In this document: positions 48,578 to 64,000 of the stretch, piece after piece
How positions within the stretch are numbered: the first letter of the stretch is position 1
Layout: every line of letters begins with the position of its first letter
Assembly: GCA_963817895.1 (NCBI GenBank)
Contig: CAWFQB010000014.1
Span: forward strand, 288,001 to 352,000
Source: an uncultured Chthonomonadaceae bacterium
Lineage (GTDB): Bacteria > Armatimonadota > Chthonomonadetes > Chthonomonadales > Chthonomonadaceae
DNA: 64,000 nt
Direction of reading: 5' to 3'
Program-made: the position numbers and the translations under genes
Notes under the pieces: model-generated
The model's database searches: none
What the model was told of the DNA's origin: nothing
The model's input: the letters and a program-made list of their open reading frames with translations, nothing else

Positions 48578-48738
48578 GAACAGGAGTTCTTGACCGCCCT
48601 ACGGTATTCCTGCCTGCTTCCGGCTTTTCACTGCAATTGTTATAAACGCTGTCACCTGAGAACATTAAAAGCCCCTCTCCTGGCGCGTTGCGCGGCAAGA
48701 GAGGGGTTGGGGTGAGGTGAGGCACCTTCATCACAGGC

Positions 48739-51647
48739 TTACGAATCATTGGAACTGCCAACATGGTCATAAAGGACATGACGCCGATAGATACTGCGCT
48801 CAGAGTTCTGCATCTTCTGCAATTCCAATTGCGCTTGTTGCTGATTTCCGTGGGCGCCAAACCAACGCGCAAAGAGAAAATGGTACAAAGCGGAATCGCT
48901 GCTCACAGAGTTCTGCCAGAAACCGTAAACCCCTCTTGCCTGCTCCCCCATATTTTGCGATAGGAAATAGTCATACTCATCCGAGTACGCCAGCGCCAGT
49001 TTATCGTCTGCCACACGCGCTTCTTTATAGATGTCAATCATCTGTTGACTTGTAACACTCCGATTCAGTTTAAGTCGTTGCGCTTGCGCGAGATACGCAA
49101 GCGCGCGGCCTCGCCCACTTTGCAATCCTTCGGCAAGTCTCATTGCTTCCGTAATATCATCATCCGCCGACTGTCCCTTTTGCAGGTAAATCATGCCTCT
49201 AAGCGCATGAGCGCTCGCCAGAGTGTTTGCGTCCTGGGCCTGTAGCATAGCATCTATCAACGGCATAGCCTTGTCCGGGGCATTCATCGCGAACCACTCA
49301 TACGCGGTGAAGTCGTCCTTGTTCGCGCTGACCGGGGACGCTGTTGTCCTGCCGGTTCCTCTCGCGCCGCTTTTGGTAGGCCGTCTCCCAATGAACTTAC
49401 TGACCGGATGCGCTATCGTGGGTTGTACAGTCGCCGGGACGGTAAAGGTCGCCGTTTTGGGATTATTGCCTGCCCCCGGCAATACTCCAGTGTCACCGCC
49501 CTGCTGTGTTCCAGGCATTGTGGCTGTGGGGCCAGGCTTGCCTGCCAGTTCTGCTTCCTTACCGGGTGGCAATGGAAGATCACTGGCAGCGGGACGCGCC
49601 TCCCCTTCCTTTCCCTTTGACGGCGTTCTACTGTCCGGCGTCTTCGGGGCAGTTTTCACCGTATCGTGAGTCGTCGCTGTCCCACCAGGAGTCGCTTTCT
49701 CATCAGGCTTTGCTTCAAGCACGGTAATGGTTCCGGCAGGAAGCTGTTCGCCGCCTTCAGGCTGCACGATAATGGCAGCCGCGCCATGTGGCGTACTAAG
49801 CGGCAGCGTGAAGCTGACTCCTTTGGAAGACCACGCCGGATTTACCGGCAAACCCTGTCCGCCGACAAAAACCTGGCCCTTGTCGCCAAGCCCCTCGCCT
49901 GAAATCGAAACCGACTCCCCCAGGCCTGTAACTGCCTGAGACAGGATGTATTTTGGCTGGCGGCGGGAACGCCAGATGGATATTGTACGCATCCTCTCTC
50001 AACTCCACCTTCAGTATTTTGGACTCGGAAGCAACCTTGTCCACCACCGCATAAACTTTCAGCATGGTAGGCTTAAGGACATCCGTTGTGATGTCGTCCA
50101 GCACAACCTGCTTTTCGTATGGGAGTACCGGGCGGGCTTCGCCTTTTCCGTTTGCGCTCGGTTCCCAAATTACATTTACTTCCTTCTCCTGTCGCGCCGC
50201 CTGTTTTAACCGGGGATTGTCGTCAATAGTAACGTTCAAGCGAACGGCTTTGGCAATGGGAATGGTAGCTGTTGGACTCAACGTCCATTCACCGAGGAAA
50301 TGCCGATCAGTGGTAGAAATAGAAAATTGTGACGGATCGCTGGTACGCGCGGAATTTTTCTTATCCGCCTTCAGTTTTGTCAGTTTGTAGTCGTCATAAA
50401 CGACACTTTTGTCAGGGTCGTTTATAACGGCTACTTTATAATTCAGCGGCGTCGCGCCCGGACCACCAGTTAAACGGCCACCGACATCCGTACCACCTTT
50501 TGGGCAAATCCTGAAAAACAACAATGTTTCCGTTGGGTTCGCCATGAATAGGTTTCGACAATTGTGTACCCTCAATGGACACAATTTGAAAATTTAGATC
50601 GTCCCAATTACCTTTGCCATTCTTTGTCGGCAAATCACCCGGGGGCAAACCGGCGAACAGGACGGTCATATTTACCACAGGCGCCCGGCGCGTGGGAATG
50701 CCCCACACGAGCCACATCAGCGAGAAGAGCGATGCGCCGAGAAAAGCCCAGTCGCGGCCCATGCGCAGCCAGGGAACATAGCGCACATAAATCGGTTTGG
50801 GCAGGGCTACCGGAACCGTCTGATGTTCGCCGACTCGCACCGCCCCGCGTACTGACACCCAACACGAGGTTCGCAGTTGCGTGGGCGGCAGTTCACAACG
50901 CCATGTGCCGGACGCGCGGGCCTCCATGGATTGGCTGATGGTGTCTACCTGCTCGGCATGTTCGGTAAGCGCCTGTCGGGTCGGGGCGCGTAAAATGTGC
51001 AGATTGGCGACCGATGGCAGGAAACAGCGGTCGTCCAGCGACAGCAAAAATTTCGCGTTACGCCGCCAGGGGCGCAGGCGCAGTTCCCCCGCGTCCGAAC
51101 GTAGCGCAAAGTCGTTCGCGGAGGGCAGAGGAACCCATCGCGCCGAGTCTTCCCCCACGACCACACCCGGATCGTTGCGGCGGCGCGGATCAAAGCGCGT
51201 GAGCACGAAATGAAACGATTGGGGCGACAGATGTTCGCGCGCGATGGGCGGAAACCGCACTTCAAAAACAGTTTCCTCACCCGGCTGAAGCAGAACGCCG
51301 CCTTCGGGCTGCCGTTCCCCGCCCGTCGCAGGCATGACAATATAGTGGTCTGCCGGAAGGTTCGTAATAGTGAGATTGTAACGGTAGGCCAACGGCTCAT
51401 CATTGCGCAGTCCCATCGTGGTCGGCTTACCGGGCCATACCAAATCGGCTTCAATATCGTCGCCAATCTCCTTACGCGTGGCAGCCTCTTCAGGGGAATA
51501 CGGCGTCTTTGCGCCGCCCAGAAAGGTAATCTGCGCTTCACCCAGTGGCGCATCGGGCGCATCGGCGCTGCGGCTATCCATCCCAAAATCGTTGGCGCCG
51601 GGTATATAGCCCGACAGTCCCATTCGGCCCAGGAGTTTGCGTATCAT
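48739..51647 (-). CDS. Large single-pass membrane protein (Ig-like N-terminus, TM helix, IPT/TIG-like domain, Pro/Thr linker, TPR-like C-terminus), split by two frameshifts
   Basis: Overlapping ORFs 50436-51647, 49796-50584 and 48739-49992 read as one protein; TM WAFLGASLFSLMWLVWGI; GESVSISGEGLG...WSSKGVSFTLP. Confidence 0.55.
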
Positions 51648-51757
51648 GGCGCTTTTCTCACTTCTTTTTACAGCATGCCACAGCGTCTTGACTGCGGCGT
51701 AATCATTTTGAATCTATCACATAACTACCTGGCGTTCTCAAGCTCGAATCGCGCTTC

Positions 51758-52297
51758 TTACGGCGTTTTACCTGTGGTCTTTCGCTTCTCGAAAATCACG
51801 GGATAGTCGAACCTCGATTTGCCCACGCGCTCGGTACTCACGCGATAGCCACTGAATATATCATGCCAGCGCTGTTTCCGCTCAGGCGCGCGAAGTATCA
51901 ATTGCGCTTCCAGATGATCCAGCCACAACTGATGCTCCTTGTTGGAACGCCATTCGACCTCTTCCTGCTTCTTCTCGTATGGGCCTGATTTATCAGGCGT
52001 GAACATCAGAGTTCTCTTTGATCCTAACGTTTTTGTACTCTCGTAACCTGAGTTTGGGCTTAGAAGTATTCCATCCGCGTCTTTCGCGTTCACCGGATTG
52101 CCTTCAACGTCGAAACCGAAAAAGTCCAGTGTAATGTCTTTCACGGCAGGCGGCTTCACCAGAACAGGGGCCACCGGTTTTGGTTTATGGTTCAGGATGC
52201 CAAGTATTGTGCCGACTGCCAGCGCGACGGCGAAGAAAGCAAGCCACTTTTTGGCAAAGTGGGCAGGCCAGCAGGTATTGGTAATCAGCGTTCCCAT
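51758..52297 (-). CDS. Hypothetical single-TM membrane protein
   Basis: AAGGA RBS; KKWLAFFAVALAVGTILGIL TM then soluble domain. Confidence 0.55.
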   Translation of the reverse strand: MGTLITNTCWPAHFAKKWLAFFAVALAVGTILGILNHKPKPVAPVLVKPPAVKDITLDFFGFDVEGNPVNAKDADGILLSPNSGYESTKTLGSKRTLMFTPDKSGPYEKKQEEVEWRSNKEHQLWLDHLEAQLILRAPERKQRWHDIFSGYRVSTERVGKSRFDYPVIFEKRKTTGKTP

Positions 52298-52600
52298 AGT
52301 TTGCGCTTTCCTTCGCGTCAATACTGTCTCATACACTACGATCAATCGTATTGATGCGGAAACACATTTGCCTGTAACCAGCGGTTAACGAAGAGCCATC
52401 TCTCTGCACAAGCAGACGGCTAAATCTTTTGAATCGTTCCCATTATTCCGGTAAGTTGTAAAGGCTGTTCTTCTTACCATTACGCGCTCCGCTCCGTTAA
52501 CTCACTTCCTGTTAGGGCGTTCCAACAGGTAAAAAGTTCACGGATTTTGGGTAAATGTTAATTAATTCACACGCGGAGATTACAAAAGCCTCACAGCCTC

Positions 52601-53635
52601 CTATTTGCGCCAGAAGGAACGGGGTTTTTGACCATTCGCTTCCGAAGAGGGTACGGATACCGCCAGATCGTGTCCAAGCGTAATCGGCTCCGGCTCCTCG
52701 TCGGGCGCGTCAAGCCATTTCAGCAGGGGCGGATACAATTGGAGCAGGCGCTCGAAACAGCCGTGAGCGCGTTCCAGCGCCTGCCCCATCGTCCAGTCGC
52801 CGTTCATCAGGGTCAGGAACCCGCCCAGATCATCCACCGCCACCTGATACGAGGTCAAGCCGGGATCGGGAAGCGCCATCAATTGCGTTCGTTGCGCGGC
52901 AAGAATTCCTGCCAGCCGTTCCACATAAGCCTGCGGATGAACGCGGGTATCCACGCTGACGGCGGCAGGGCCGAGCGAACCCGCCAGCGTCAGCGCGACG
53001 GAAAACACGCGCAGATTATCGGCGGAGTGTTTTTGCAGCGCATCCAATCCCTGCGAAGCCAACTCCACAATGTTTTTGTGCATTTGCCACTGGTTGGCGT
53101 GACTTGACAGAAACATGGTATCAGGGATGTAATGCGCATCCGGCTTCAAGCCTTCGGGCGTTTTCTCAAACTGCGCGATTTGCAGCCACTCGTATCGAGG
53201 ATCGGCGCTATCCGAAGCCAGGATATACTCGCGCCGCCGCCCGCCGCATTGCAGCAGGCCCATATCTACGGAGGGATGCAGTTCCGGTTCGCGCAAACGC
53301 TCGGCCTTGCCCACGCCGAGGAAAAGCGGCACAACATTCTGAACGGCCTGAATATGCCCGCGAACCGCCAGGCGAATATCATCGGGAACCTCGTAAAAGT
53401 AGCCATTCGCCCCAATTGCGAAACAGCCATGCACCGATACGGAAAATGTCTGATACCCTTCCGGGCTGGGCCGGCTGACGCCATCATCGGAAAGATGCAG
53501 CAGGCCGTGAAAACGCCCGCGCTGCAGTGTCCAGCGCATCAGCTCTTCCAGATAGAACGTTTCCTGTTTCCATTGACCGGCCTGCATCAAACCTACGGTA
53601 TCCCAATCTACAGACACCAAATCAAACTCGCGCAT
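52601..53635 (-). CDS. tssK: TssK-like T6SS baseplate subunit (divergent)
   Basis: VDWDTVGLMQAGQW (cf. TssK VxWxxGM), HGLL, VHGCFAIGANG (CxAIxxxG), PDAHYIPDTMFLSSH (YIPP); downstream of TssF/G-like genes. Confidence 0.6.
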   Translation of the reverse strand: MREFDLVSVDWDTVGLMQAGQWKQETFYLEELMRWTLQRGRFHGLLHLSDDGVSRPSPEGYQTFSVSVHGCFAIGANGYFYEVPDDIRLAVRGHIQAVQNVVPLFLGVGKAERLREPELHPSVDMGLLQCGGRRREYILASDSADPRYEWLQIAQFEKTPEGLKPDAHYIPDTMFLSSHANQWQMHKNIVELASQGLDALQKHSADNLRVFSVALTLAGSLGPAAVSVDTRVHPQAYVERLAGILAAQRTQLMALPDPGLTSYQVAVDDLGGFLTLMNGDWTMGQALERAHGCFERLLQLYPPLLKWLDAPDEEPEPITLGHDLAVSVPSSEANGQKPRSFWRK

Positions 53636-53676
53636 TTTGTAGTTACTCCTTCACACATCCACTCCTCAAAATGCAT

Positions 53677-53767
53677 CCCTTCTCCCGATTTTGGGAGAAG
53701 GGCCGAGGATGAGGGCCAAAAACGCCTCCCTTCTCCCAACTTTGGGAGAAGGGCCGGGGATGAGGGC
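53677..53767. repeat. Tandem CCCTTCTCCC-TTTGGGAGAAGGG REP-like hairpins
   Basis: Two about 40-nt copies between the TssG- and TssK-like genes. Confidence 0.8.
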
Positions 53768-53779
53768 TATCTCCTTCAA

Positions 53780-55609
53780 TCATTCCACACTCTGCAATCG
53801 TACGCCACTCTGATACGGATGCCGGAGGTAGCTTCCCTGCCCCATACGGGCGACACTCTCTTTCCAGACCACATCAGCCCGCAGGCAAACCGGCAGAAAC
53901 AGCCGCAGCAGCAGGGTTAATCTCGCTTTGGCGGCAATGGCCGCGTCGTCGCCGTCTTCGATCAGCGGCATATAAATCGTTACGCCCGGATAGTGTACCT
54001 GCACCATGCCGCCAAGCGCGGCGGTTGCTCCCGGCTGGCTGAACAGCGTGTTGAACCCACCGCCCACATTCTGGTAGTGATCCCACTTCACTTCAATACC
54101 GGGATCAATCAAACGCTGCAAGGCGGTTTGCAGCAGCAGCAACGGATCGGGCGCTTCCCGCCGCCATCCCACCAGCGACCAGAGTTCCTGCCGCTCCTCC
54201 GCGCTTAACAGGTCGGTATCGCGAATATCCGACAAAGCCGCGTTTCCCGCAAGGTTCAAACCATCCAACGAGGAAATCTTGCCCCCATAGATTGCAGAAG
54301 CGCCAACGTCATGTACAGACAACATTTCCGGTGAGTTGGTTCTTTCGGCTGAAAATGGCCGGCTGATGACACCTAAAAACCCCTCTTCGTTAAGCCATTT
54401 CTGCATCAGCGTCAGCAGAAGCGTCCGTTGACTCAGCCCGCCCGTAAACGAGAGAAACACGCCTTTCGCGGGCATCTCTCCTGTCGGCAGCCGAAAGTCT
54501 TCCACCTGTCCATGTATCCAGCCAATGCCCCACAGATAATCCAGCACGGCCACACTGGTAAAAACCTCTGTTGTGAGTATTTCCACCAGTTCGCGCGCAA
54601 TCCGGTAGCGTTCTCGGACGGTTTCCTGCGCCAGCCGGTCAATCAGCATTTGCAGCAGCAGCCGTTGCCGCGCGATTTCCACATCCGACAGGGCGTTCGC
54701 CAGTTCCGCCATGTGAGCGGCGCGGTCATTCAGGGTATCCAGCAAAAGCGCCGCGCCCCATTCGCGCAGGCGCGCTCGCGCCCCCACAGCCGCTTGTTCG
54801 CCCCCCTGCTCTGCCGGAAGCGTCAACTTGCTCACCTGCATATCAAACCATTCCGCAAGGAGCGGCCTGTCCGCTTTTTCGGGTACCGTCTGAGCCGACT
54901 GACGCAGCCACCGCTGCCGCTCTTCCAGTTCCGTCGCTTCGAGGGCGCGTAACAGGCCCTCGCACCATGCGTTCAGGATGTTGCGGGTTTCCAACGGAAC
55001 AACGCGCATCAGTTCCGGGTAGGCTGCGGCTATCTGCCGCGTCAATCGAGCCAGCGGTTGATCCACGCGCTCACGGGAAACCTCATTGTCCGACAGAGCA
55101 GTGTCAGCGGATTCGCCGTCCGGGGCGCCCTCATTTTCGACCGGAAGCGGCGGCAGTCCGGCAAGCAGCGGCTCCATGAAATGCGCCAGTCGCCCCACCT
55201 GCCGCATGGTTACATTTTCCGGTTCGCCGGGGGCAGCCGTATCCTGCCAGATAATATCCGCACGCACGTTCACCTTTAAGCGCGGGCGAATGGCGCGGGG
55301 ATTCACTTCGGTCACGGTCGCGCGTTCCGTAGCAGGATCATATCGAGCGCCCTGCGGATGCCGCAAATCCATTGCGGCGGCATGGCGTTCCCAGTCCTCC
55401 AGCGGCTCCTCTTCAACCACTTCGGGCAGAGCGAAATGACCGATTTCCGGCAAAAATCGGATGTTCTTTTCCGGTACGCCCAGTTGGTGCAGCGTCAGCC
55501 ACACTTGCAGCAGGTAGCTCGGCCAGTTTGCGCCCGACAGTTGCGGATACGGCACAAGTTCATTTTCCGTCGCCTCCTGTCGCCTGTCGCCTGTCTCCTG
55601 TATCCTCAT
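53780..55609 (-). CDS. tssG: TssG-like T6SS baseplate subunit (enlarged, divergent)
   Basis: IRFLPEIGHFALPEV near the N-terminus and LLLRLFLPVCLRADVVW...RMGQGSYL at the C-terminus; ATGA-coupled to the TssF-like gene. Confidence 0.5.
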   Translation of the reverse strand: MRIQETGDRRQEATENELVPYPQLSGANWPSYLLQVWLTLHQLGVPEKNIRFLPEIGHFALPEVVEEEPLEDWERHAAAMDLRHPQGARYDPATERATVTEVNPRAIRPRLKVNVRADIIWQDTAAPGEPENVTMRQVGRLAHFMEPLLAGLPPLPVENEGAPDGESADTALSDNEVSRERVDQPLARLTRQIAAAYPELMRVVPLETRNILNAWCEGLLRALEATELEERQRWLRQSAQTVPEKADRPLLAEWFDMQVSKLTLPAEQGGEQAAVGARARLREWGAALLLDTLNDRAAHMAELANALSDVEIARQRLLLQMLIDRLAQETVRERYRIARELVEILTTEVFTSVAVLDYLWGIGWIHGQVEDFRLPTGEMPAKGVFLSFTGGLSQRTLLLTLMQKWLNEEGFLGVISRPFSAERTNSPEMLSVHDVGASAIYGGKISSLDGLNLAGNAALSDIRDTDLLSAEERQELWSLVGWRREAPDPLLLLQTALQRLIDPGIEVKWDHYQNVGGGFNTLFSQPGATAALGGMVQVHYPGVTIYMPLIEDGDDAAIAAKARLTLLLRLFLPVCLRADVVWKESVARMGQGSYLRHPYQSGVRLQSVE

Positions 55610-57270
55610 CGTTCGCCCTCCGCGCCGACAACGCGCCCGTCAATGCGGAAACAGGATAAGACAAAATACTGCGACACGACGGACGCGAGATAGTTGGCGA
55701 CATCAGACAACAGCCATGGCGCAGTGCCGCTTGCTGCCGGAGTTGGCGCGAAAGCCAGATGCAGGCTCTGAAGCAGGGGCACAAAACCTGCCGTCAGGCC
55801 ATCGCGCGACAATTCAAACCCGTCTTCGTTGCCCAGAATCGAAGGCCACAGGTAAGATTTCCAGTGTTCCGCCGCGCCGCTCGGCTCCTGGGCAATGCCC
55901 CGGCTCGCGCTTTGCAGGCGCAGCCACTGGCCGAACGCGCCCTGACTGCGCTGCCGAACAATCTCCATCAGGTCGCCTTCGGTAAGCAGGGGCGGGCGCA
56001 ATGTACTCTGATACCACGCGGTTCGCGCCCATTCCGCCCGGTCTTCGGGGCCGCCCACGCTCAGGCCGCCAATGGCAGGCAGGGGAACGGTAAAGCGGGC
56101 ATTGGCGCGTTCCAGTCGGGCGGGGGTATCGCTTCCATCCTCGCGCTCCTGCCCGAAAGAATCGTGGTACAGCTTGACGCGGGCGATACTGGCATTGCCC
56201 TGCGCGAAGCGCACCTCTACATCGTCGTACTTCGCGCGGGGGTCATGGCTCGGCAATCGCTGCATGGACGCGGGAACAACGCTGTTGTCATTGTAGGTAA
56301 CGGCGGCGAAAATGTTGGGCAGTCCGCTCAGACGCAGCCCGTATTCCTGACCGATTCGGGGAAACGGCGCGGGAATGATGCTGTCGACAACAGCAGTCTG
56401 CGCGAGGGGAATGGGGTTCAGCAGCAAACGGGAACTGTCAGGAAGGGCGGCAAACTCCTGCGCGGCGCGGCGAACGGCAGGCGTGGCAAGAGGCAGGCGC
56501 GCGGTGAAGCGCAGGCCGTCCGTTGCGGACGGCGCGCTCGGAACAGGCGGCGTGTCCCTGCGGTCGGCTCCCCCATCGCTTTGCAGACAAATAATTTTAC
56601 GGGCATAAGGATGGCAGGGCGGCAGCCAAAAATCCAATTGCCGCTGATTAAGGCGAGCGGTCTGCATTTCGCGCTCAAAAGCGAGAAACCCCTCATAGCG
56701 TGTCAGGCGGGCGGGGCGGTTTTCCCCGGTTCCAATCTGTACCCACCAGTTCGCGCTTTGCAGGACGCCGAGGAGGGATTCGTTTCCGGCAACAAAAGCG
56801 AGTTGCCCGCGCTCTAACAGAGAAACAGAATTGGATTGACTGCTCAGAAGCGTAATATCCAGCGTCACTATCGCCTCGCGCTCCTGAATTTGCATGGATA
56901 GTGACTGCAACTGCGTGGGGTGCAGCCAGCCGTCGCCACAGGCCATCCACGGGCGCTTGCCGACCTCGGTAAAGGCGGTTCCGAAAGGAACATCGGTGGC
57001 GCGTTCCACAGGAGATTGGGGAACAGCAAGAGTTTGCGCGGGGAAATTCCAGTTTCCGAGGGGGAAGAACTGCTCCTGCAGGCGGGCGATAGCGGCATTC
57101 TCGCCCATCGCGTAGTGTGTTTGCACCGCGTTTTTCCATCCGGCAAGCATCGCGAGAAAAGGGGCGTAATGCGTGTCGTAATCGGCGAGGACGCGCTGCC
57201 GCATGTCACGGGGCATGTACGCGAGTATGTCGCGGACGTTTTCAGGTACTTCGCTCTCATCAAACGCCAT
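55606..57270 (-). CDS. tssF: TssF-like T6SS baseplate subunit (divergent)
   Basis: ARLQEQFFPLGNWNFPAQTLA...VPFGTAF, LLNPIPLAQ (cf. LNCxPxxN), LRPPLLTEGDL (cf. RIVTxxD); 554 aa. Confidence 0.55.
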   Translation of the reverse strand: MAFDESEVPENVRDILAYMPRDMRQRVLADYDTHYAPFLAMLAGWKNAVQTHYAMGENAAIARLQEQFFPLGNWNFPAQTLAVPQSPVERATDVPFGTAFTEVGKRPWMACGDGWLHPTQLQSLSMQIQEREAIVTLDITLLSSQSNSVSLLERGQLAFVAGNESLLGVLQSANWWVQIGTGENRPARLTRYEGFLAFEREMQTARLNQRQLDFWLPPCHPYARKIICLQSDGGADRRDTPPVPSAPSATDGLRFTARLPLATPAVRRAAQEFAALPDSSRLLLNPIPLAQTAVVDSIIPAPFPRIGQEYGLRLSGLPNIFAAVTYNDNSVVPASMQRLPSHDPRAKYDDVEVRFAQGNASIARVKLYHDSFGQEREDGSDTPARLERANARFTVPLPAIGGLSVGGPEDRAEWARTAWYQSTLRPPLLTEGDLMEIVRQRSQGAFGQWLRLQSASRGIAQEPSGAAEHWKSYLWPSILGNEDGFELSRDGLTAGFVPLLQSLHLAFAPTPAASGTAPWLLSDVANYLASVVSQYFVLSCFRIDGRVVGAEGER

Positions 57271-57331: not shown

Positions 57332-57991
57332 CTATCTATTCTCCAGCCACTGCTTCACTTCCTGCCGGGATTGCGCTTCAGGACTCTGCTCATTCATCAG
57401 AATGGTATCCGTCACCTCTTTTAGCGTGATGCCCTGCGCGTTGGCGGCAGCCGGGTTTGCGCCCCGTTTCAGCAGCATTTGAACTGTTGAGAATTGGCGC
57501 AAAATCGCCATTTTGAGCAGCAGCGTGTTGCCGTTCGCGTCCCTTGCTTCGATGTCTGCGCCATGTTTGAGCAGCAGTTCAATATTTTCGCGGCGCAGTT
57601 CGTTTGCCGCAATAAATACAATCGGTTCTCCTTCCGGCCCCTTGCCGTTGGGATTGCCTCCGTTCTCCAGTAAAATTTGCAGCAGTTCCGGGTCGTCCGC
57701 GCCTGCCCCCAGAGCAACGGGAGATTTTCCCGCTTCCGCGTTCCAGTTCGGGTCGGCTCCCCGTTGCAGCAGCAGGCGCATCCACTCTTTTCGGCGGTAT
57801 ACCATGGCGACAATGAGCGGCGGAGCGCCTTCCGAACCGGGAGCGTTGGGGTCAACGCCCGTGTTCAGCAATGCCTGCGCATTCTGCGAATGGTCTTCTG
57901 CAATAGCGGCAATCAGTTGTTCCGTGGCGGCGTTGCCCACAGTGGGCACAGCCACTTGAAAGGCTGAATTAAGGGGCGTATTCGAGGACAT
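57332..57991 (-). CDS. Ankyrin-repeat protein, probable lipase immunity/accessory protein
   Basis: ATG overlaps the lipase TGA at 57991; repeats GVDPNA, LLLQRGADPN, LLENGGNPN, LLKHGADIEARDANGNT. Confidence 0.8.
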   Translation of the reverse strand: MSSNTPLNSAFQVAVPTVGNAATEQLIAAIAEDHSQNAQALLNTGVDPNAPGSEGAPPLIVAMVYRRKEWMRLLLQRGADPNWNAEAGKSPVALGAGADDPELLQILLENGGNPNGKGPEGEPIVFIAANELRRENIELLLKHGADIEARDANGNTLLLKMAILRQFSTVQMLLKRGANPAAANAQGITLKEVTDTILMNEQSPEAQSRQEVKQWLENR

Positions 57992-58882
57992 CAGAAGCAA
58001 CCTCCTCCCAAAAGTTCCTGTTGGCGTTGATAATCCAGCGCACTTGTAACCGAACCCATTTTGTGCAGAGTGCCAGGATTGCTGGAAAGCGGCTCCCCGT
58101 TCGCGCTTCGCGCGGCAAGGTCTACCTGACAGCCGAGCGCGGCGGGGATGCCGGAGCCGACGGCAGCGCCGATTCTGGCTCCCACTCCCGCGCCGCTGCC
58201 GCCACTCGCGATAGCCCCGATAACTCCGCCGGCGGCCCCCAGGTAGGCGGCAGGGTGTTTCTGGAAACCGGTCAGGACTTCGCCCTCCACACGGTAGTTG
58301 GTAATCAGGTTGTTCAAATTGGACGTGTCCAGATTCATGCGGGCGAGTGTTGCGGGGTTTACGCCCGCCGCATTGAACGTCGTGGTAGGCACATGCAGAA
58401 CCGCCGCGCCCACGCCTGCGAGTTCCTCCGCCCAGCGAGTGTCCCGTCACCACAATATTGTCGTTGGGAAACTGGCGCTTCACCTCATACGCCGCTTCCG
58501 CCGCCTGATTGTACTGCGCGGTTTCAAACCCCAACCCCTGCTTTGCGTTAGCCCACCAGTCTTTAGCGCTGGTCACTTCGGTTCCCCGGTAAGCAAGCAC
58601 AATGTTGCCGGTACGCAGATCACGATATGTAGCCGCGAAAAATCCGCTGTCCGGGTGGTTAAAATTGGGCAGAACTCGTTCCGAATCAGGGGGATGGCCG
58701 GTGTCATTATACGCGGCGGTCGAAAATTCGGCCATGCGCTGCGCGGTTGCGGTATCGGTAGGACACTTACTTTTTGAGTTCGCGCCTCCTGCGCCCGCCG
58801 CAGCAACTGCGCCCTGAGCGTGCTGCGCGATAATAGGAAGCAAATCTTCAACAAAGCGATTTCGGTTTAGCAGGGAAGCCAT
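57991..58882 (-). CDS. Lipase class 3 / DUF2974-like phospholipase effector (one frameshift)
   Basis: SGFFAATY, VLAYRGTE, DWWANAKQGLG, VTGHSLGGG, then TFNAAG and GTLHKM in the frame of ORF 57991-58413. Confidence 0.82.
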
Positions 58883-58937
58883 AACTTCACAACCCCTTCA
58901 CTTTCTACAGCGTTCAAGCAACCCATCGTAAGGATAT

Positions 58938-60230
58938 TTATGTTTGCACCCTATTTACGCTAATAAATAAGATTCGTTTGCAACGGTGTGTCCGGCAGGC
59001 TGATAGTTGTATACCTCTTAATTTTACTTCCGGCACAGAGTAGAAGCCGCTGTACGCCGCCGCTTTCTTGCCGCCGTCATGCCCACCCCCATACGGCGTC
59101 ACCTGATGCAGCCATGCCCGTTCGCCAGAGGGCTGCGGGTCCAGATGTTCCCACTCGAACTCCACCTGAATACGTCCCTGTTGCAGCGGGTCATGCTCAT
59201 TCGCCGTGACATGCCCCCACACCGCCCGGCTCGGCCACTCAGGTCGTTCTTTGTGCGGCGGCAAGGGCAGGGTCAAGGGTTGCAGCCACAACTCCTGCGT
59301 TCCCGTCGTTTGTTCCGGATGTCCCACAATGCGCGTCTGGTAGATGAGATGCTGCTGCCCCTCAAAAGAAACCACCTGCCCCGGTTGAAACGGCAACACC
59401 ATGCCTTCCAGACGCAAATAGTAGCCGCTGATGTCGTTATGCCCTTTGGTGTGACTCACGTTGCTGGTAATATCAGGACGCTCGGGAGCCTGCATGTAGT
59501 CTGCTGTGGCGCGGCTGAGTTGCCCAAGATGCTGACTGGCCTGCTGACGCGCCTGAGCCGTGGGGCCGCTGCCGCCGCTCGGAGGTTCGGGCAGAGTATG
59601 CAGACTGCCGCCGAAACTCACTTCCGCCCACCCGAAGTTGATGTCGGGGAACGTTTCACTCGCTTCCTGTCCTCTGGCTCCTAACTGCACATCCCCGGTT
59701 CTGTCCACAACCGCGACAGGAACGCTCCACGCATGGCACATTCTTGCGAGGTACTGGTAGTCGGTTTCGAGGTACTGCAAACTCAGGGGAATGGGCTTGG
59801 CAAGATCGCCCGCGTTGACGATCTTGAAGCGCGGCTCGGTTTTGGCAACCTGCTGCGCGATGTCGAGGAGGGTTGTGGCCTGAAACGCTCTGTGCCGCGG
59901 CACAAGATCGGTGCGCTTGCTGTAACTCACTCACGAGAGTGTCAGGCGCGAACTGTTGGCGTCGCGCTGTCCCGATGTGTTCTCCACGTATCCGTGAAAG
60001 CAGTTGAGCGCTTCGACGAGATCGTTGTCTTTCCAGTTCACATCAACGGGGCAGTTGAGCGCTTTGCCCGCAAACAGGGCGGTCGGACGCTCGCCATAGT
60101 GGTTGTGTTCCTGCCAGCGCCACGTCAGATGGGCGCGCGTATGCTCGTACAGATGGCGTTCCACCACCATCTCACTGAGAAACTATTTGGTATAATTTTT
60201 CAGTTTTGTTACCGATACGGTGGCTGTGTA
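58938..60230 (-). pseudogene. vgrG: VgrG/phage late-control D-like spike protein with in-frame stops, truncated inside the gp5 OB-fold
   Basis: FHGYV, RHRAFQ, LQYLETDYQYLARM, GHVTANEHDPLQQGRIQVEF, AWLHQVTPYGG, GFYSVPEV; TAG at 60183-60185 and TGA at 59931-59933 in frame. Confidence 0.8.
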
Positions 60231-61252
60231 TCAGAAACGTTTTCTGATTGAACAGCATTCTGTAGTGTGCTTTGATAGATTTGCGCAGTGGCGGCGAATG
60301 TAGCGGCGCGATCTGTGCCGTTGACAACACGGCGGGCATTAGCAAAGTCTGTTGCAGTATCATTGACGTAATCGGGCAAGGCGCGTCCGGTAAACGTACC
60401 CTGCATCATACCCTGTGCCAGAATACGCGCGGCTGTCTGAGGATTAGTTGCTTGCTCGGGATGGGCGACAAGATTGATGGCTGCGTTATCGGGTTGCAAA
60501 CGGTTTGTCCAGTCTTGATAGTTGTTGCGGCCTGTAACCTGCACATACCCGCGTCCACGAAAATCATAGCCGTCGCTAGTACCCGCCTGATTGCCCAAGT
60601 CTGCATGTCGGGGCATATTGTAGCGAGAATCGAAGTAGTCCTGCGGTGTCTGGCTCTGCGCGAGGTGCCAGGGAACTTCCTCCAGCGCGGGATACTCTAT
60701 GCCATGCCAAGTGTGAGGAGAACCAAAATCCGATTCATGCTGTGCGGTTGCGAGCATGTAAGCTGTTTGCGGCAAGTTCGCGTTCTGCTGCGCTGCGGCC
60801 TGCAAAATCGCAGGAACGGCCGTTTGCGCGTAAGGGCGGAGGTTGGCAGGCACAGCCTGTACTATCACATCGGCAAACCGAGTGAAGTTATTGGCCGCCC
60901 GCTGCACAGCCTGTCCTCCTATCTGCGCCGCGCCTTGTGCGATAGGCCCTGCAAAGCCAGGTGTAGCTCCCGGCAGACCTTGCGTGGACTCAGCTAAAAT
61001 AGGTCCCGCAAATCCGGGCGTAGCTCCCGAAAGCCCACTTGATTGCGCTGATTGGAACGGAGGCGTCATTCCCGTTGTTCCCTGGCCTGTCATCTGCGCA
61101 ATGCTGCCGATAGCCGTCTGTACTGCTGTCTGCGCAACACTGCCGCCGGGAAGCAAGTGAGATACCGCCTGATTTGCTTCCTGCGTGGTAATAGAAAGAA
61201 CCTCTTCTACGAAGCGGTCCCGTTTTAGTGGTTCGGAAGGATTAGGGGACAT
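60209..61252 (-). CDS. GH19/lysozyme-like protein with long N-terminal extension (candidate effector)
   Basis: AYMLATAQHES, FRGRGYVQVTGRNNY, NLVAHPEQA, GTFTG, ARRVVNGTDRA. Confidence 0.8.
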   Translation of the reverse strand: MSPNPSEPLKRDRFVEEVLSITTQEANQAVSHLLPGGSVAQTAVQTAIGSIAQMTGQGTTGMTPPFQSAQSSGLSGATPGFAGPILAESTQGLPGATPGFAGPIAQGAAQIGGQAVQRAANNFTRFADVIVQAVPANLRPYAQTAVPAILQAAAQQNANLPQTAYMLATAQHESDFGSPHTWHGIEYPALEEVPWHLAQSQTPQDYFDSRYNMPRHADLGNQAGTSDGYDFRGRGYVQVTGRNNYQDWTNRLQPDNAAINLVAHPEQATNPQTAARILAQGMMQGTFTGRALPDYVNDTATDFANARRVVNGTDRAATFAATAQIYQSTLQNAVQSENVSDTQPPYR

Positions 61253-61409
61253 TTTGAAAAACGTAGCTCCTTGTTTCAGCGATGAAAGCGCAAACTATAC
61301 AGTAGTTGCTGAAAGGTAAACTTATACTTGCTTTGCAGTTCTTCCAGTGTCGTGATCGTAATTACTCGACCCGGTGTGGCTGAAAAAGCCGATTATACGA
61401 CGATGTCAA

Positions 61410-61595
61410 CTACTTGTTCCAAGTACGACAGTGGAGACAAGGGTTTGATAATTTCAGACGTAACTTTTCACACACCGGACAGGCATAACGAAGTTCCTGT
61501 TCATATTCTGCTGGCGATATTTCGAAATGCGCATCCCACGTTGTATCTTCTGCACAATGCGGGCATAAAATCGTTTCCGTTAAAATGTGTCCCAT
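61410..61595 (-). CDS. Small Cys-rich (zinc-ribbon-like) hypothetical protein
   Basis: Three CxxC motifs (CPHC, CPVC, CLHC) in 61 aa. Confidence 0.4.
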   Translation of the reverse strand: MGHILTETILCPHCAEDTTWDAHFEISPAEYEQELRYACPVCEKLRLKLSNPCLHCRTWNK

Positions 61596-61722
61596 GATGT
61601 CCCTTTGTATTGTTCACGTAACTCGTGATGTCGGGACGCTCGGGAGACTGACGGGTGACGACATTTATGGAAATGTCGTCATCGTCAGTTTCCACTCAAG
61701 GTGCTTCTATTTCGTGATAAAC

Positions 61723-62208
61723 TCAAGAGCGGCGGAAGGAAAAGGAGTAGAGTATCTGTTCAAATATGAAAGCGTACTTCTCCTGTATGCTCTCCAGCGT
61801 TGTTGCAGTAATTATCAGTCCTGTGCGAGAAGATTCACCTGTCGCTGAATCGCTTGGCAAGGGACAAATTATATACGCCTGACGTTGCCGCATGACCTGA
61901 CGATCCGACTTCCAATTGTATTCCGCAGTGACAACACCAACTCCATCCACTATTGTTTCGCCACGTAGTATTAACCGATAGCCCGGTAGCTTTTGCGATA
62001 ATACTTGCAGCCCTTTACTGGCAAAGCCTTGCGCAGACTCATCTATGCCTACATTTTCACGACTGACGACAAAACTAAATTCCGGCGGCACCTGACTCTT
62101 GGGAGCCATAACTGCTTCCAAGTTTGCTATAGCAAAGATGTTGACGCTTTGATCTTGAGATTGGTAAGGAAGCACAAACTCGGCTTCGTTAATACGGTAC
62201 AAGTTCAT
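61723..62208 (-). CDS. DUF1795/DcrB-like (EagR-type) effector adaptor
   Basis: YRINEAEFVLP...DQSVNIF, FSFVVSRE, YNWK...MRQRQA, LIITAT, ILYSFSFR. Confidence 0.75.
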   Translation of the reverse strand: MNLYRINEAEFVLPYQSQDQSVNIFAIANLEAVMAPKSQVPPEFSFVVSRENVGIDESAQGFASKGLQVLSQKLPGYRLILRGETIVDGVGVVTAEYNWKSDRQVMRQRQAYIICPLPSDSATGESSRTGLIITATTLESIQEKYAFIFEQILYSFSFRRS

Positions 62209-62318: not shown

Positions 62319-63299
62319 TTACTGTTGAGCACCTGCCGTACGCAGTAGAAGAACCATATCCTGAAAGCCTGCTGCCACCGCCAGAGTCAGGGCTGTATCA
62401 TTCCCATTGTCAACAGCATTCACCCGCGCACCCTGGTTCATTAATAGGCGAGCCATTTCCTGGTAGTCGAAAGTGACCGCCCACATCAGAGGCGTCCACC
62501 CATCTTTGTCGCGAACATTCACGTTCACGCCGGCGTTCAGCAATTCTTGAACGTTTTCAATCTGATTGCCCATCACGGCCTTAATCAGTTTTTCAACGTC
62601 AGGAGATAAAGCATGCAAAGGCGCGGCCACATTCGCAAAGAGGATTTCCGCTGCTTCCTGCGGTAAGAAATAGGCGTAATCCGCTATCGCGCTCACCCAG
62701 TTTTGAGAGTGGGATTGCTCCGGCGCTTGTGTCCTCGAAAGTGAGGGTTCGCGTGACCGAAGCGCCCCATTTTGCACAGCCACCGGATAGAGCAGGTAAG
62801 GCTCAACATGCAGTTCCTGCGCCAGCAGTAGCAGGGGATAGGATTGCTTCTGAAAAATGGATTCTTGTACGGATTTACCAAGTTCCGGCGTGTCAGCAAA
62901 ATTAAGATTATAATCGTGTCGTATGGCAATCAAGTAGCCGCCATTGCAAGAAACCGATTGATAAAGCTCATTGTCAGTAACTGTTTGCGTCCAGCCATCC
63001 TTGCCAATCAAGCGCGTCTCTTTTGTGCGATCATGGCGATACATAATATAAGTATCATTCTCGAACAGCATGGGACTGCGTTTGACTCGCGCTTCGTGCC
63101 TCGCCATGCATTGCGCCCAAAAACCGCCATAGGGAGACTGGATCAGGCAACGCAGATGGCAATTTCCGAACGCGCGGCGCGTAATCACCTGACGGGCTTC
63201 CGGCGTATTGTTGTCAATCAGGTAAGTATCCATAACGGCATCCTGACCAACCAATCCTAACACCACATTGCCACAGAGAAAGCACAGCGTTTCTTGCAC
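62319..63299 (-). CDS. Hypothetical protein with C-terminal ankyrin repeats (possible immunity protein)
   Basis: LLNAGVNVNVRDKDGWTPLMWAV, GARVNAVDNGNDTALTLA; Cys/His-rich N-terminus (CFLC, CHLRC). Confidence 0.7.
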   Translation of the reverse strand: MQETLCFLCGNVVLGLVGQDAVMDTYLIDNNTPEARQVITRRAFGNCHLRCLIQSPYGGFWAQCMARHEARVKRSPMLFENDTYIMYRHDRTKETRLIGKDGWTQTVTDNELYQSVSCNGGYLIAIRHDYNLNFADTPELGKSVQESIFQKQSYPLLLLAQELHVEPYLLYPVAVQNGALRSREPSLSRTQAPEQSHSQNWVSAIADYAYFLPQEAAEILFANVAAPLHALSPDVEKLIKAVMGNQIENVQELLNAGVNVNVRDKDGWTPLMWAVTFDYQEMARLLMNQGARVNAVDNGNDTALTLAVAAGFQDMVLLLRTAGAQQ

Positions 63300-63343
63300 T
63301 TGAAATTTACCTCCATCGGACGCATTACGTTCCGCAGAAAATC

Positions 63344-63829
63344 CTATGGTTCGGTACGCAGCATCTTTAAGAACTCTATGAAGTTACTTGCAACGGGAAT
63401 CATGGAGGGCTGGCCTTCCTGTGACCCTTCATGATTCCACACGACTACGCGTGGCACGGCCTCTCCACCAGATTGATCAAAGCAGAGCATATCGCCCGCG
63501 AACAGCTCTGCGAACGGAACTTGACTGTCTAGGAGACGATCAAATATTTGTGACAGAACGACACCTACATCATAACCCTTATGACTCGGGTCTGCGCTGA
63601 GATTATCAATCATGCACAGAAAGCGTGTGATCACCTTTGTGTTTCCAGGCATGTCGAAGTACCGCTTTCGTGGCTTGCCGCCATTGCATCGCTGTAGGTG
63701 TGTCAAATAAGCAGGTTCGTACCGGATGCCATACATCTTTTCGGTGGAAGAAAAGATGCGCATAGATACCGGCCCGGCGCAACTGCCGTCTTCGTATTCT
63801 ATATCCACATAATCGTCAGCGTATGTCAT
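63344..63829 (-). CDS. SMI1/KNR4 (SUKH) family immunity protein
   Basis: ATG after AAGGA; YLTHLQRCNGG, VPFAELFAGDMLCFD, PRVVVWNHE, VASNFIEFL. Confidence 0.85.
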   Translation of the reverse strand: MTYADDYVDIEYEDGSCAGPVSMRIFSSTEKMYGIRYEPAYLTHLQRCNGGKPRKRYFDMPGNTKVITRFLCMIDNLSADPSHKGYDVGVVLSQIFDRLLDSQVPFAELFAGDMLCFDQSGGEAVPRVVVWNHEGSQEGQPSMIPVASNFIEFLKMLRTEP

Positions 63830-63875
63830 GCGTTTTCCTTTTCTAGGCACTCCCTCTAGTTCCCCCTGCTGCTCT

Positions 63876-64000
63876 CTATCTTGGTCCTTCAGCCCAATTG
63901 CCTTCTTTTCTGCCGCCATCATGGTTGTAGATGCGGTGAGTACCATATGGAACTTGCTGCATTGTGCCGTCTGGTCGGCCTTGCCCTGCCGGACCATGAT
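63876..64000 (-). CDS. C-terminus of a WHH-type HNH nuclease toxin (partial)
   Basis: Not in ORF track; reads (H)HGPAGQGRPDGTMQQVPYGTHRIYNHDGGRKEGNWAEGPR*, matching WHH...GTMQLVP...H...H.GG...W. Confidence 0.75.
   Translation of the reverse strand, partial: HGPAGQGRPDGTMQQVPYGTHRIYNHDGGRKEGNWAEGPR

Follow-up and report, generated by a model that had tools for sequence, protein, structure and literature searches.

A short N-terminal leader on unrelated toxin-like proteins, a candidate cargo tag of a divergent type VI-like secretion machine

Two genes of an uncultured Chthonomonadaceae bacterium, encoding a GH19-family protein and a lipase, begin with the same short leader and continue into different catalytic domains. 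They lie in a 64,000-nucleotide stretch of the source genome G000 (the window, G000:C14:288001-352000), in the operon of a putative secretion machine. A single homologous motif, the leader has been joined to unrelated toxin-like domains; it stands apart from their catalytic folds and is tied to one machine. That it acts as a delivery tag for cargo effectors at all is quite probable. Sequence comparisons further point to a short linear tag of a divergent contractile machine resembling type VI secretion systems (T6SS), most likely docking on the VgrG-PAAR spike; this reading is given a probability of roughly 0.55. A bolder version is more tentative: a peptide of about 20 residues, taken from the segment that folds the VgrG tail, would have become a free and swappable spike-docking tag, and the contractile machine that uses it, having one long sheath-like protein, would belong to a subtype not yet described.

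How secure is the likeness of the two N-termini? A first-pass annotation of the window, made from the sequence alone, had reported an ungapped 22-residue segment with 12 identical positions, and this was borne out: both N-termini are as quoted, and six-frame scoring of the genome over 8,328,998 positions finds none but the GH19 and lipase leaders themselves at the score of the pair (55, BLOSUM62), the runner-up reaching 38. The DNA of the two segments is identical at 46 of 69 nucleotides (67%), and six of the twelve identical residues are encoded by different synonymous codons in the two genes. Because of this level of identity and the synonymous changes at half of the conserved residues, the two leaders are best regarded as one ancestral sequence constrained as protein. 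Within the GH19 pair the leader is more conserved than the linker (16/22 against 47/85). Both genes also have a purine-rich stretch upstream of the ATG.

The leader does not look like a conventional export signal. No hydrophobic region (h-region) like that of a signal peptide was seen in the GH19 protein or the lipase, their best 11-residue hydropathy being 1.14 and 1.22 compared with 2.40 in a signal-peptide control, in agreement with the earlier statement that neither protein carries a Sec, Tat or lipoprotein signal. AlphaFold2 places a helix at residues 11-33 of the GH19 protein (confidence score, pLDDT, 65-75) and at residues 5-28 of the lipase orthologue P0121 (pLDDT below 50), and the hydrophobic moment of the leader is 0.44-0.69. 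In these models the leader is a single isolated helix, apart from both catalytic cores and ahead of a disordered linker. The short amphipathic helix proposed at first is present as a predicted helix, but the conserved core is its N-terminal half and not the whole of it. Likewise, the Ala/Gly/Gln-rich linker ascribed to both proteins is long in the GH19 protein (pLDDT below 50 over residues 56-108) but amounts to only about 16 residues in the lipase.

A profile search of the source genome, suggested by the same annotation, found no third copy, whether by regular expression, hidden Markov model (HMM) or position-specific scoring matrix; the assembly is 81% complete. Further copies were found in relatives, where the loci of 17 genomes were read. 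Iterated searches brought the family to 12 N-terminal copies, nine in five genomes and three in metagenomic proteins (P0002, P0121, and P0122), full-length homologues that retain the leader. As had been predicted, it precedes varied toxin-like C-termini, with at least six unrelated domains: GH19 (twice), lipase (three times), GH108, an HExxH domain (twice), and DUF2515. The remaining carriers are a domain of unknown type encoded before an FGE-sulfatase gene, its truncated orthologue, and one truncated open reading frame (ORF). The core shared by the family, (R)P(M)xP[LIV]xRxx[FL][VA]E[ED][VL][LM]P, is about 20 residues long; the Q-x-A-x-x-A-V half that comes after it occurs only in the window's clade and, loosely, in the genome G356.

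In G356 the leader is carried by a GH108 lysozyme, P0167, which is encoded between the tube gene and vgrG and is followed by a signal-peptide gene. Its N-terminus is the best non-self match among 559,230 positions, with none of 5000 shuffles reaching its score. Over the first 155 residues P0167 aligns with P0002 at a score of 89, compared with 51.5 +/- 7.8 for shuffled sequences (0/1000). A search with its N-terminal 158 residues against 401 genomes returned low-complexity noise only. Adding the G356 leader to the profile yielded sub-threshold N-terminal matches in G371 and G296 (E 0.15-0.67), in orphan genes with an HExxH or unknown domain; the gene behind each encodes a signal-peptide protein, a lipoprotein or an FGE-sulfatase. 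The next round gave three matches outside the training set (E 2.5e-14, 1.5e-9, and 4.1e-6): an orthologue cut at a contig end, a truncated Ala/Ser-rich ORF, and the DUF2515 protein. A further round found no new copies.

The profile was cross-validated because the copies had been found iteratively. When built from the six copies of the g80 group alone, it scores the window GH19 leader at 38.7, a level reached by 5 of 12,856,033 six-frame genome positions, and the G356 GH108 leader at 50.8, with no source-genome position at 40 or above. Conversely, a profile of the window's clade scores the six g80 copies at 16-31, values reached by 0-6 of 3000 shuffles. The motif has in this way led to six orphan genes for toxin-like proteins, spread over three genomes and in some cases carrying unknown domains, and it already serves as a marker for such genes. 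In both G371:C2 (L198 892-1578) and G296:C142 (L250), a leader-bearing toxin-like gene that has no Pfam match stands directly behind atpG; in G371 the next gene encodes an FGE-sulfatase whose N-terminal segment is hydrophobic.

The leader was expected to occur only in genomes with the T6SS-like locus and next to immunity genes. Among the genomes searched, matches at E<1e-3 are present in 5 of the 21 that have the machine and in none of the 11 without a tube gene, a small and related sample. An immunity-like gene, judged by position and mostly by a signal peptide rather than by family, lies directly downstream of six of the seven complete genomic ORFs (the window lipase, G356, G371 twice, G296, and G326 C152). 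Two other leader ORFs run off their contigs, and the three metagenomic proteins have no context.

The first-pass annotation recognised no named family in the leader, and the searches concur: the 12 leaders match no Pfam family and have one irrelevant NCBIfam match, in libraries that were not checked for RIX, PIX, MIX, FIX or WHIX models. The model of prePAAR (PF25799), a motif that stands ahead of transmembrane helices and PAAR and is bound by Eag, does not match the leaders; the locus's own prePAAR effector matches it weakly. An HMM of five leaders finds nothing elsewhere in the class (67 other genomes); run against 1.84 billion representatives, it returns two training sequences and one repeat-like 114-aa protein, with nothing outside this lineage. 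The two-leader HMM gives weak matches in 24 other genomes of the 401 in the phylum (E 0.001-0.1), one of which, G296:C142, is a true copy cut by a contig end. The leader has no usable match in the ESM Atlas and only matches of E>1 in a PDB sequence search. All matches to DNA patterns, six in GTDB genomes and 33 in JGI metagenomes, were judged on reading to be chance, and a word-indexed region search did not recover even P0002. A helix of the TssG-like protein (residues 331-354; gene 53780-55609) resembled the five-leader profile (hhalign P 0.002) but was also rejected as chance: the match disappears with the family core (206/500 shuffles, for the source genome's copy only), and the DNA identity is 23-24 of 60. 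Four leader motif strings are not mentioned in the literature searched, although subscription papers and supplementary tables lay outside that search and a prior description is possible. The leader is real, apparently undescribed, and narrow in range.

Where would such a tag bind? The leader core also occurs in cis, directly behind the last strand of the needle, in VgrGs that have a C-terminal extension domain (G326b, G112, and G433). Scans of the whole VgrG peak at this post-tip segment, with scores of 32.6 (0/500 shuffles), 19.2 (1/500), and 15.8 (2/1000), respectively. Each of the five leader-bearing genomes encodes a VgrG that is tail-less or short-tailed, stopping at the tip or just beyond it, whereas none of the 15 genomes in which only a long-tailed VgrG was seen has leader genes; in this count G237 was left out for lack of its VgrG end, and G428 and G433, which agree with the pattern, were assigned to a class when it was already known that they have no leader. 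Within one genus, the tubes of the leader-bearing G371 and G296 are 98-99% identical to those of the leaderless G218, G157, and G331, while the needles are only 24-35% identical. These comparisons suggest that the presence of the leader follows the type of VgrG and not the type of tube. Of the partners proposed at first, namely VgrG, Hcp or DUF1795, the evidence points to the VgrG spike and away from the other two. Binding of cargo to VgrG has precedents: PIX binds VgrG (10.1101/2023.07.16.549128), and Tle1 of enteroaggregative Escherichia coli (EAEC) is stated to bind it by an N-terminal extension (PMC9860674).

A mechanism can be envisaged on this basis. In VgrGs with an extension, the core segment would fold the tail back against the spike. 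Effectors with a free N-terminal copy would use the same site in trans on VgrGs that lack a tail of their own, so that the tag replaces the missing tail and the effector hangs from its flexible linker, to be fired with the spike. The simplest history would be the splitting of a VgrG-tail-toxin fusion, after which the tag was shuffled onto new toxins, including orphan toxin-immunity pairs.

Several observations weigh against docking on the spike, or against the family on which it is built. In G289 and G268 the VgrG tail has its peak at the corresponding position, but the match is weak (60 and 76 of 500 shuffles); the tail in G261 does not match. The correlation with VgrG type rests on a few kin lineages and incomplete assemblies; on both VgrG trees the leader label requires two changes, compared with about 4.6 for shuffled labels, which indicates clustering among kin and not independent co-evolution. 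Both kinds of VgrG occur in G326, and besides its first VgrG G371 carries a truncated one similar to the extension type. Between the G000 needle and the needles of the other leader-bearing genomes identity is no more than 35-37%, while the G000 and G356 tubes are most similar to each other (79%). The leader family is small. Its g80 copies were first chosen from sub-threshold matches, and for them the window-clade profile alone is not genome-wide significant (eight non-self positions at 25 or above in 12.86 million). The lipase leaders tie weakly to the g80 group (16.8-20.7; 0-11 of 3000 shuffles), mainly through the GH19 leader. P0002, P0121, and P0122 are known without neighbouring genes, and the complete gene that departs from the expected pairing is that of the window GH19 protein, downstream of which no immunity gene was found.

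Alternatively, the tag might load cargo into the lumen of the tube, as do the N-terminal signals of Photorhabdus virulence cassettes (PVC) or as in Hcp-bound T6SS cargo. A short leader on a long unfolded linker recalls PVC effectors (PMC9054023), the G356 effector is encoded between tube and vgrG, and the closeness of the G000 and G356 tubes is not repeated by the sheath or baseplate genes. This explanation is nevertheless unlikely: near-identical tubes occur with and without leader cargo, the PVC signals have few conserved residues (PMC9054023) while the leader is conserved, and the cis motif in VgrG tails would be left unexplained.

An adaptor or assembly factor, either DcrB/Eag or another protein, might instead read the motif and handle both VgrG tails and cargo, with no docking on the spike. 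A motif common to VgrG and cargo fits a shared third partner as well as it fits a shared site, and immediately upstream of the GH19 gene there are both an intact dcrB and a remnant of dcrB. However, dcrB follows prePAAR-PAAR effectors throughout the relatives and also closes the cassette in G326, so its position needs no link to the GH19 gene. It occurs in many leaderless loci, and no DcrB-like gene was seen beside the orphan pairs in the 3-kb loci read, all of which makes an adaptor improbable.

Could the leaders be relics of recombination, pieces of vgrG tail carried along in the shuffling of toxins without any role in targeting? The locus is full of vgrG and dcrB debris, and the two leaders are 67% identical in nucleotides. 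Yet the synonymous differences fall at conserved residues, the leader is better conserved than the linker, its N-terminal position is fixed, and three genomes retain it in orphan genes distant from any vgrG, so that a relic is a distinctly improbable account. Least likely is a helix that serves the enzyme or another export route, whether as a Tat signal in degenerate form (R-N-R-F), as an amphipathic helix that binds membranes, or as the lipase family's N-terminal helix, later copied to the GH19 gene: the hydrophobic moment would suit it and in XVIPCD-type lipases a comparable stretch, RPSFADEV, precedes the first helix of the core, but that resemblance lacks significance (hhalign P 0.2), the model does not pack the helix on the lipase with confidence (pLDDT below 50), and the g80 copies precede polar Pro/His-rich linkers without an h-region.

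The first leader-bearing protein is a putative cargo effector. Judged by its predicted fold and two catalytic glutamates, it is a GH19 muramidase. Both residues, E173 and E192, are invariant in 87 sequences; the protein itself has no Pfam match while its homologues carry PF00182, and a Foldseek search with its model matches GH19 endolysins and a T6SS effector domain. Among 119 other listed GH19 homologues, the leader model scored only P0002. In G261 (L039 11998-14993) a PAAR gene and a presumably DUF4123-like gene accompany a GH19-Ntox46 double-domain effector with a different N-terminus; the same GH19 domain may use another loading route there.

The reading frame of the lipase is interrupted just after GHSLGGG. 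The break is likely to be an assembly error, because this assembly also has frameshifts in its sheath-like and vgrG1 genes, which are whole in most relatives; the lipase orthologues P0121 and P0122 are intact. The one DNA sequencing run has little coverage, and none at the break. The best fold match of P0121 is the T6SS lipase of Enterobacter cloacae, 9CYS (E 4e-11), which is partnered by the ankyrin protein Tli (PMC11470151). The ankyrin-repeat protein encoded behind the window lipase is, by analogy, likely to be a Tli-like immunity protein or activator. The positions of these genes and of their neighbours are collected in Table 1.

Table 1. Features of the leader-bearing locus. Positions are those of the window unless a contig is named.
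Feature	Position	Strand	Remarks
Structural genes: TssF-like, TssG-like, TssK-like, membrane/TPR proteins	48739..57270	(-)	
Ankyrin-repeat protein	57332..57991	(-)	overlaps lipase stop; Tli-like, probably immunity or activator
Tle-like GxSxG lipase, putative cargo effector	57991..58882	(-)	frame change near 58414-58421 in this assembly
Leader copy 2	58805..58870	(-)	residues 5-26 of lipase
vgrG2 remnant	59016..60182	(-)	91% nt identity to vgrG1; truncated at both ends; in-frame TGA 59931-59933
GH19-family muramidase, putative cargo effector	60209..61252	(-)	347 aa; leader, disordered linker, catalytic domain
Leader copy 1	61163..61228	(-)	residues 9-30 of GH19 protein; family core begins a few residues earlier, at Pro-rich N-terminus
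Decayed cassette	61279..61650	(-)	dcrB 3' fragment 61279-61383; vgrG fragment 61594-61650
DcrB/DUF1795 (Eag-type chaperone)	61723..62208	(-)	accompanies prePAAR-PAAR effector in relatives
Ankyrin protein and SUKH/SMI1 immunity gene	62319..63997	(-)	behind prePAAR-PAAR-WHH nuclease
prePAAR-PAAR-WHH nuclease, vgrG1, tube, sheath	G000:C14:351879-359611		beyond window

The operon starts about 8 kb outside the window, with a membrane protein that is presumably ubiquitin-like. A sheath-like protein of about 860 aa, the tube, vgrG1, a prePAAR-PAAR-WHH nuclease, SUKH and ankyrin genes, and dcrB follow. After dcrB come the decayed vgrG/dcrB cassette, the GH19 gene, the vgrG2 remnant, the lipase and ankyrin genes, and the baseplate-like genes. 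The two leader-bearing genes thus do flank a vgrG, as first described, but the gene between them is a truncated pseudogene remnant of vgrG1, without a start and without the whole C-terminal part; the full vgrG1 lies just outside the window. A near-perfect inverted repeat of 51 nt (window 61594-61693) stands right behind the dcrB stop and overlaps the decayed vgrG fragment; it is possibly a terminator or a deletion scar. Short intergenic repeats at 48656-48724 and 53660-53770 have dozens of copies genome-wide.

The machine itself (window 48739-57270 and G000:C14:351879-360365) is divergent. Its VgrG and PAAR have family matches and the tube matches gp19 weakly, while the baseplate-like genes have no Pfam, NCBIfam or PDB sequence match, and no PDB sequence match was found for the structural proteins. 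The TssF-like and TssG-like proteins have no family match and are named from position and size only, and the TssK-like protein has a weak VasE match (E 0.099). The locus contains no recognised membrane complex; TssJLM and ClpV had no match in a scan limited to proteins of the locus. By language-model features only, the ~860-aa sheath-like protein of G289 resembles VipB/TssC (VipB 0.92) and unnamed Bacillota clusters. VgrG was found in 19 of the 401 genomes of the phylum, and a tube in two further genomes. This may be an undescribed subtype of T6SS or contractile injection system (CIS) related to a Bacillota cluster. The literature searched held nothing relevant on type VI secretion in Armatimonadota or on the Gram-positive look-alike, and, among the papers listed, no match for the motif PFCEEC.

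Loci of the relatives show further variations. G289 (L034 15691-17415) and G268 (L036) have three tandem tube paralogues, one of which is fused to the C-terminal extension domain of VgrG, and stand-alone copies of this domain occur beside LysM/peptidoglycan-binding genes in G389 and G261 (L158, L159). In G261 (L039 16439-19746) the locus ends with genes that, on reading their sequences, are labelled DnaK-like, ubiquitin-like membrane, and DnaJ-like. The T6SS-like locus of G066 is directly followed (L178 17434-20000, L179) by a cluster resembling an extracellular CIS, with what we take to be a phage-type sheath and tube and proteins like those of an extracellular CIS core. G371 (L165 19061-20000, L166) and G270 (L172-L173) contain arrays in which orphan 3' fragments of vgrG are found together with prePAAR effectors, toxin tips, and immunity genes, which suggests a swapping of cassettes like that in the window.

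How does the leader compare with known delivery motifs? MIX, FIX, RIX, PIX, and WHIX are cargo-delivery motifs of polymorphic T6SS effectors. Like such motifs, the leader is N-terminal and is combined with several unrelated toxin domains, and among the genomes searched it is confined to those with the secretion machine. The molecular working of the named motifs is described as not examined, and the recognition of cargo effectors as open for most of them (PMC13323088). In this respect a 20-residue tag with a cis counterpart in VgrG would give a direct and cheap test of where and how cargo docks. If docking on the spike is correct, no shorter conserved address for T6SS cargo would be known to us, and the leader would show how evolved VgrG-toxin fusions become cargo effectors.

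Among individual systems, the N-terminal signal peptides of PVC are, like the leader, short additions to otherwise ordinary toxin domains. They are about 50 residues long with little conservation and load the tube in a Pvc15-dependent manner (PMC9054023), whereas the leader is conserved and follows the type of VgrG. Tle1 of EAEC and Tle3 of adherent-invasive E. coli are lipase effectors loaded on VgrG by an N-terminal extension (PMC9860674), as is proposed here. Their extension is effector-specific and binds a TTR domain at the VgrG C-terminus (PMC9860674); by contrast, the leader is common to unrelated effectors and is paired with VgrGs that have no TTR-type domain. The Tle/Tli pair of E. cloacae (PDB 9CYS; PMC11470151) is matched here by the fold of the lipase orthologue and by the ankyrin-repeat partner. 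This likeness covers the toxin domain only; Tli has a lipoprotein form, while no signal peptide was seen in the ankyrin protein of the window.

RIX and PIX are tags of a like kind. RIX, on T6SS cargo of the Vibrionaceae, is also a lineage-restricted N-terminal segment with conserved arginines on polymorphic toxins (PMC10435454). It has about 55 residues and is reported only from Gammaproteobacteria (Vibrionaceae and kin), in contrast to a core of about 20 residues serving the divergent machine of another phylum. PIX, from Enterobacterales, is likewise an N-terminal tag on orphan toxin-immunity pairs, but it is a folded domain of 140 residues and is reported never to lie inside T6SS clusters (10.1101/2023.07.16.549128). 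Unlike PIX, the leader is a short linear or helical motif that occurs both in the locus and in orphan genes, and also in VgrG tails. By length (55 and 140 residues) and host range, it does not fit membership of either family. Sequence comparison suggests an element that functions like RIX and PIX but is far shorter, has another host range, and matches none of the models tested; if it proved sufficient for loading, it would provide a delivery tag much smaller than either.

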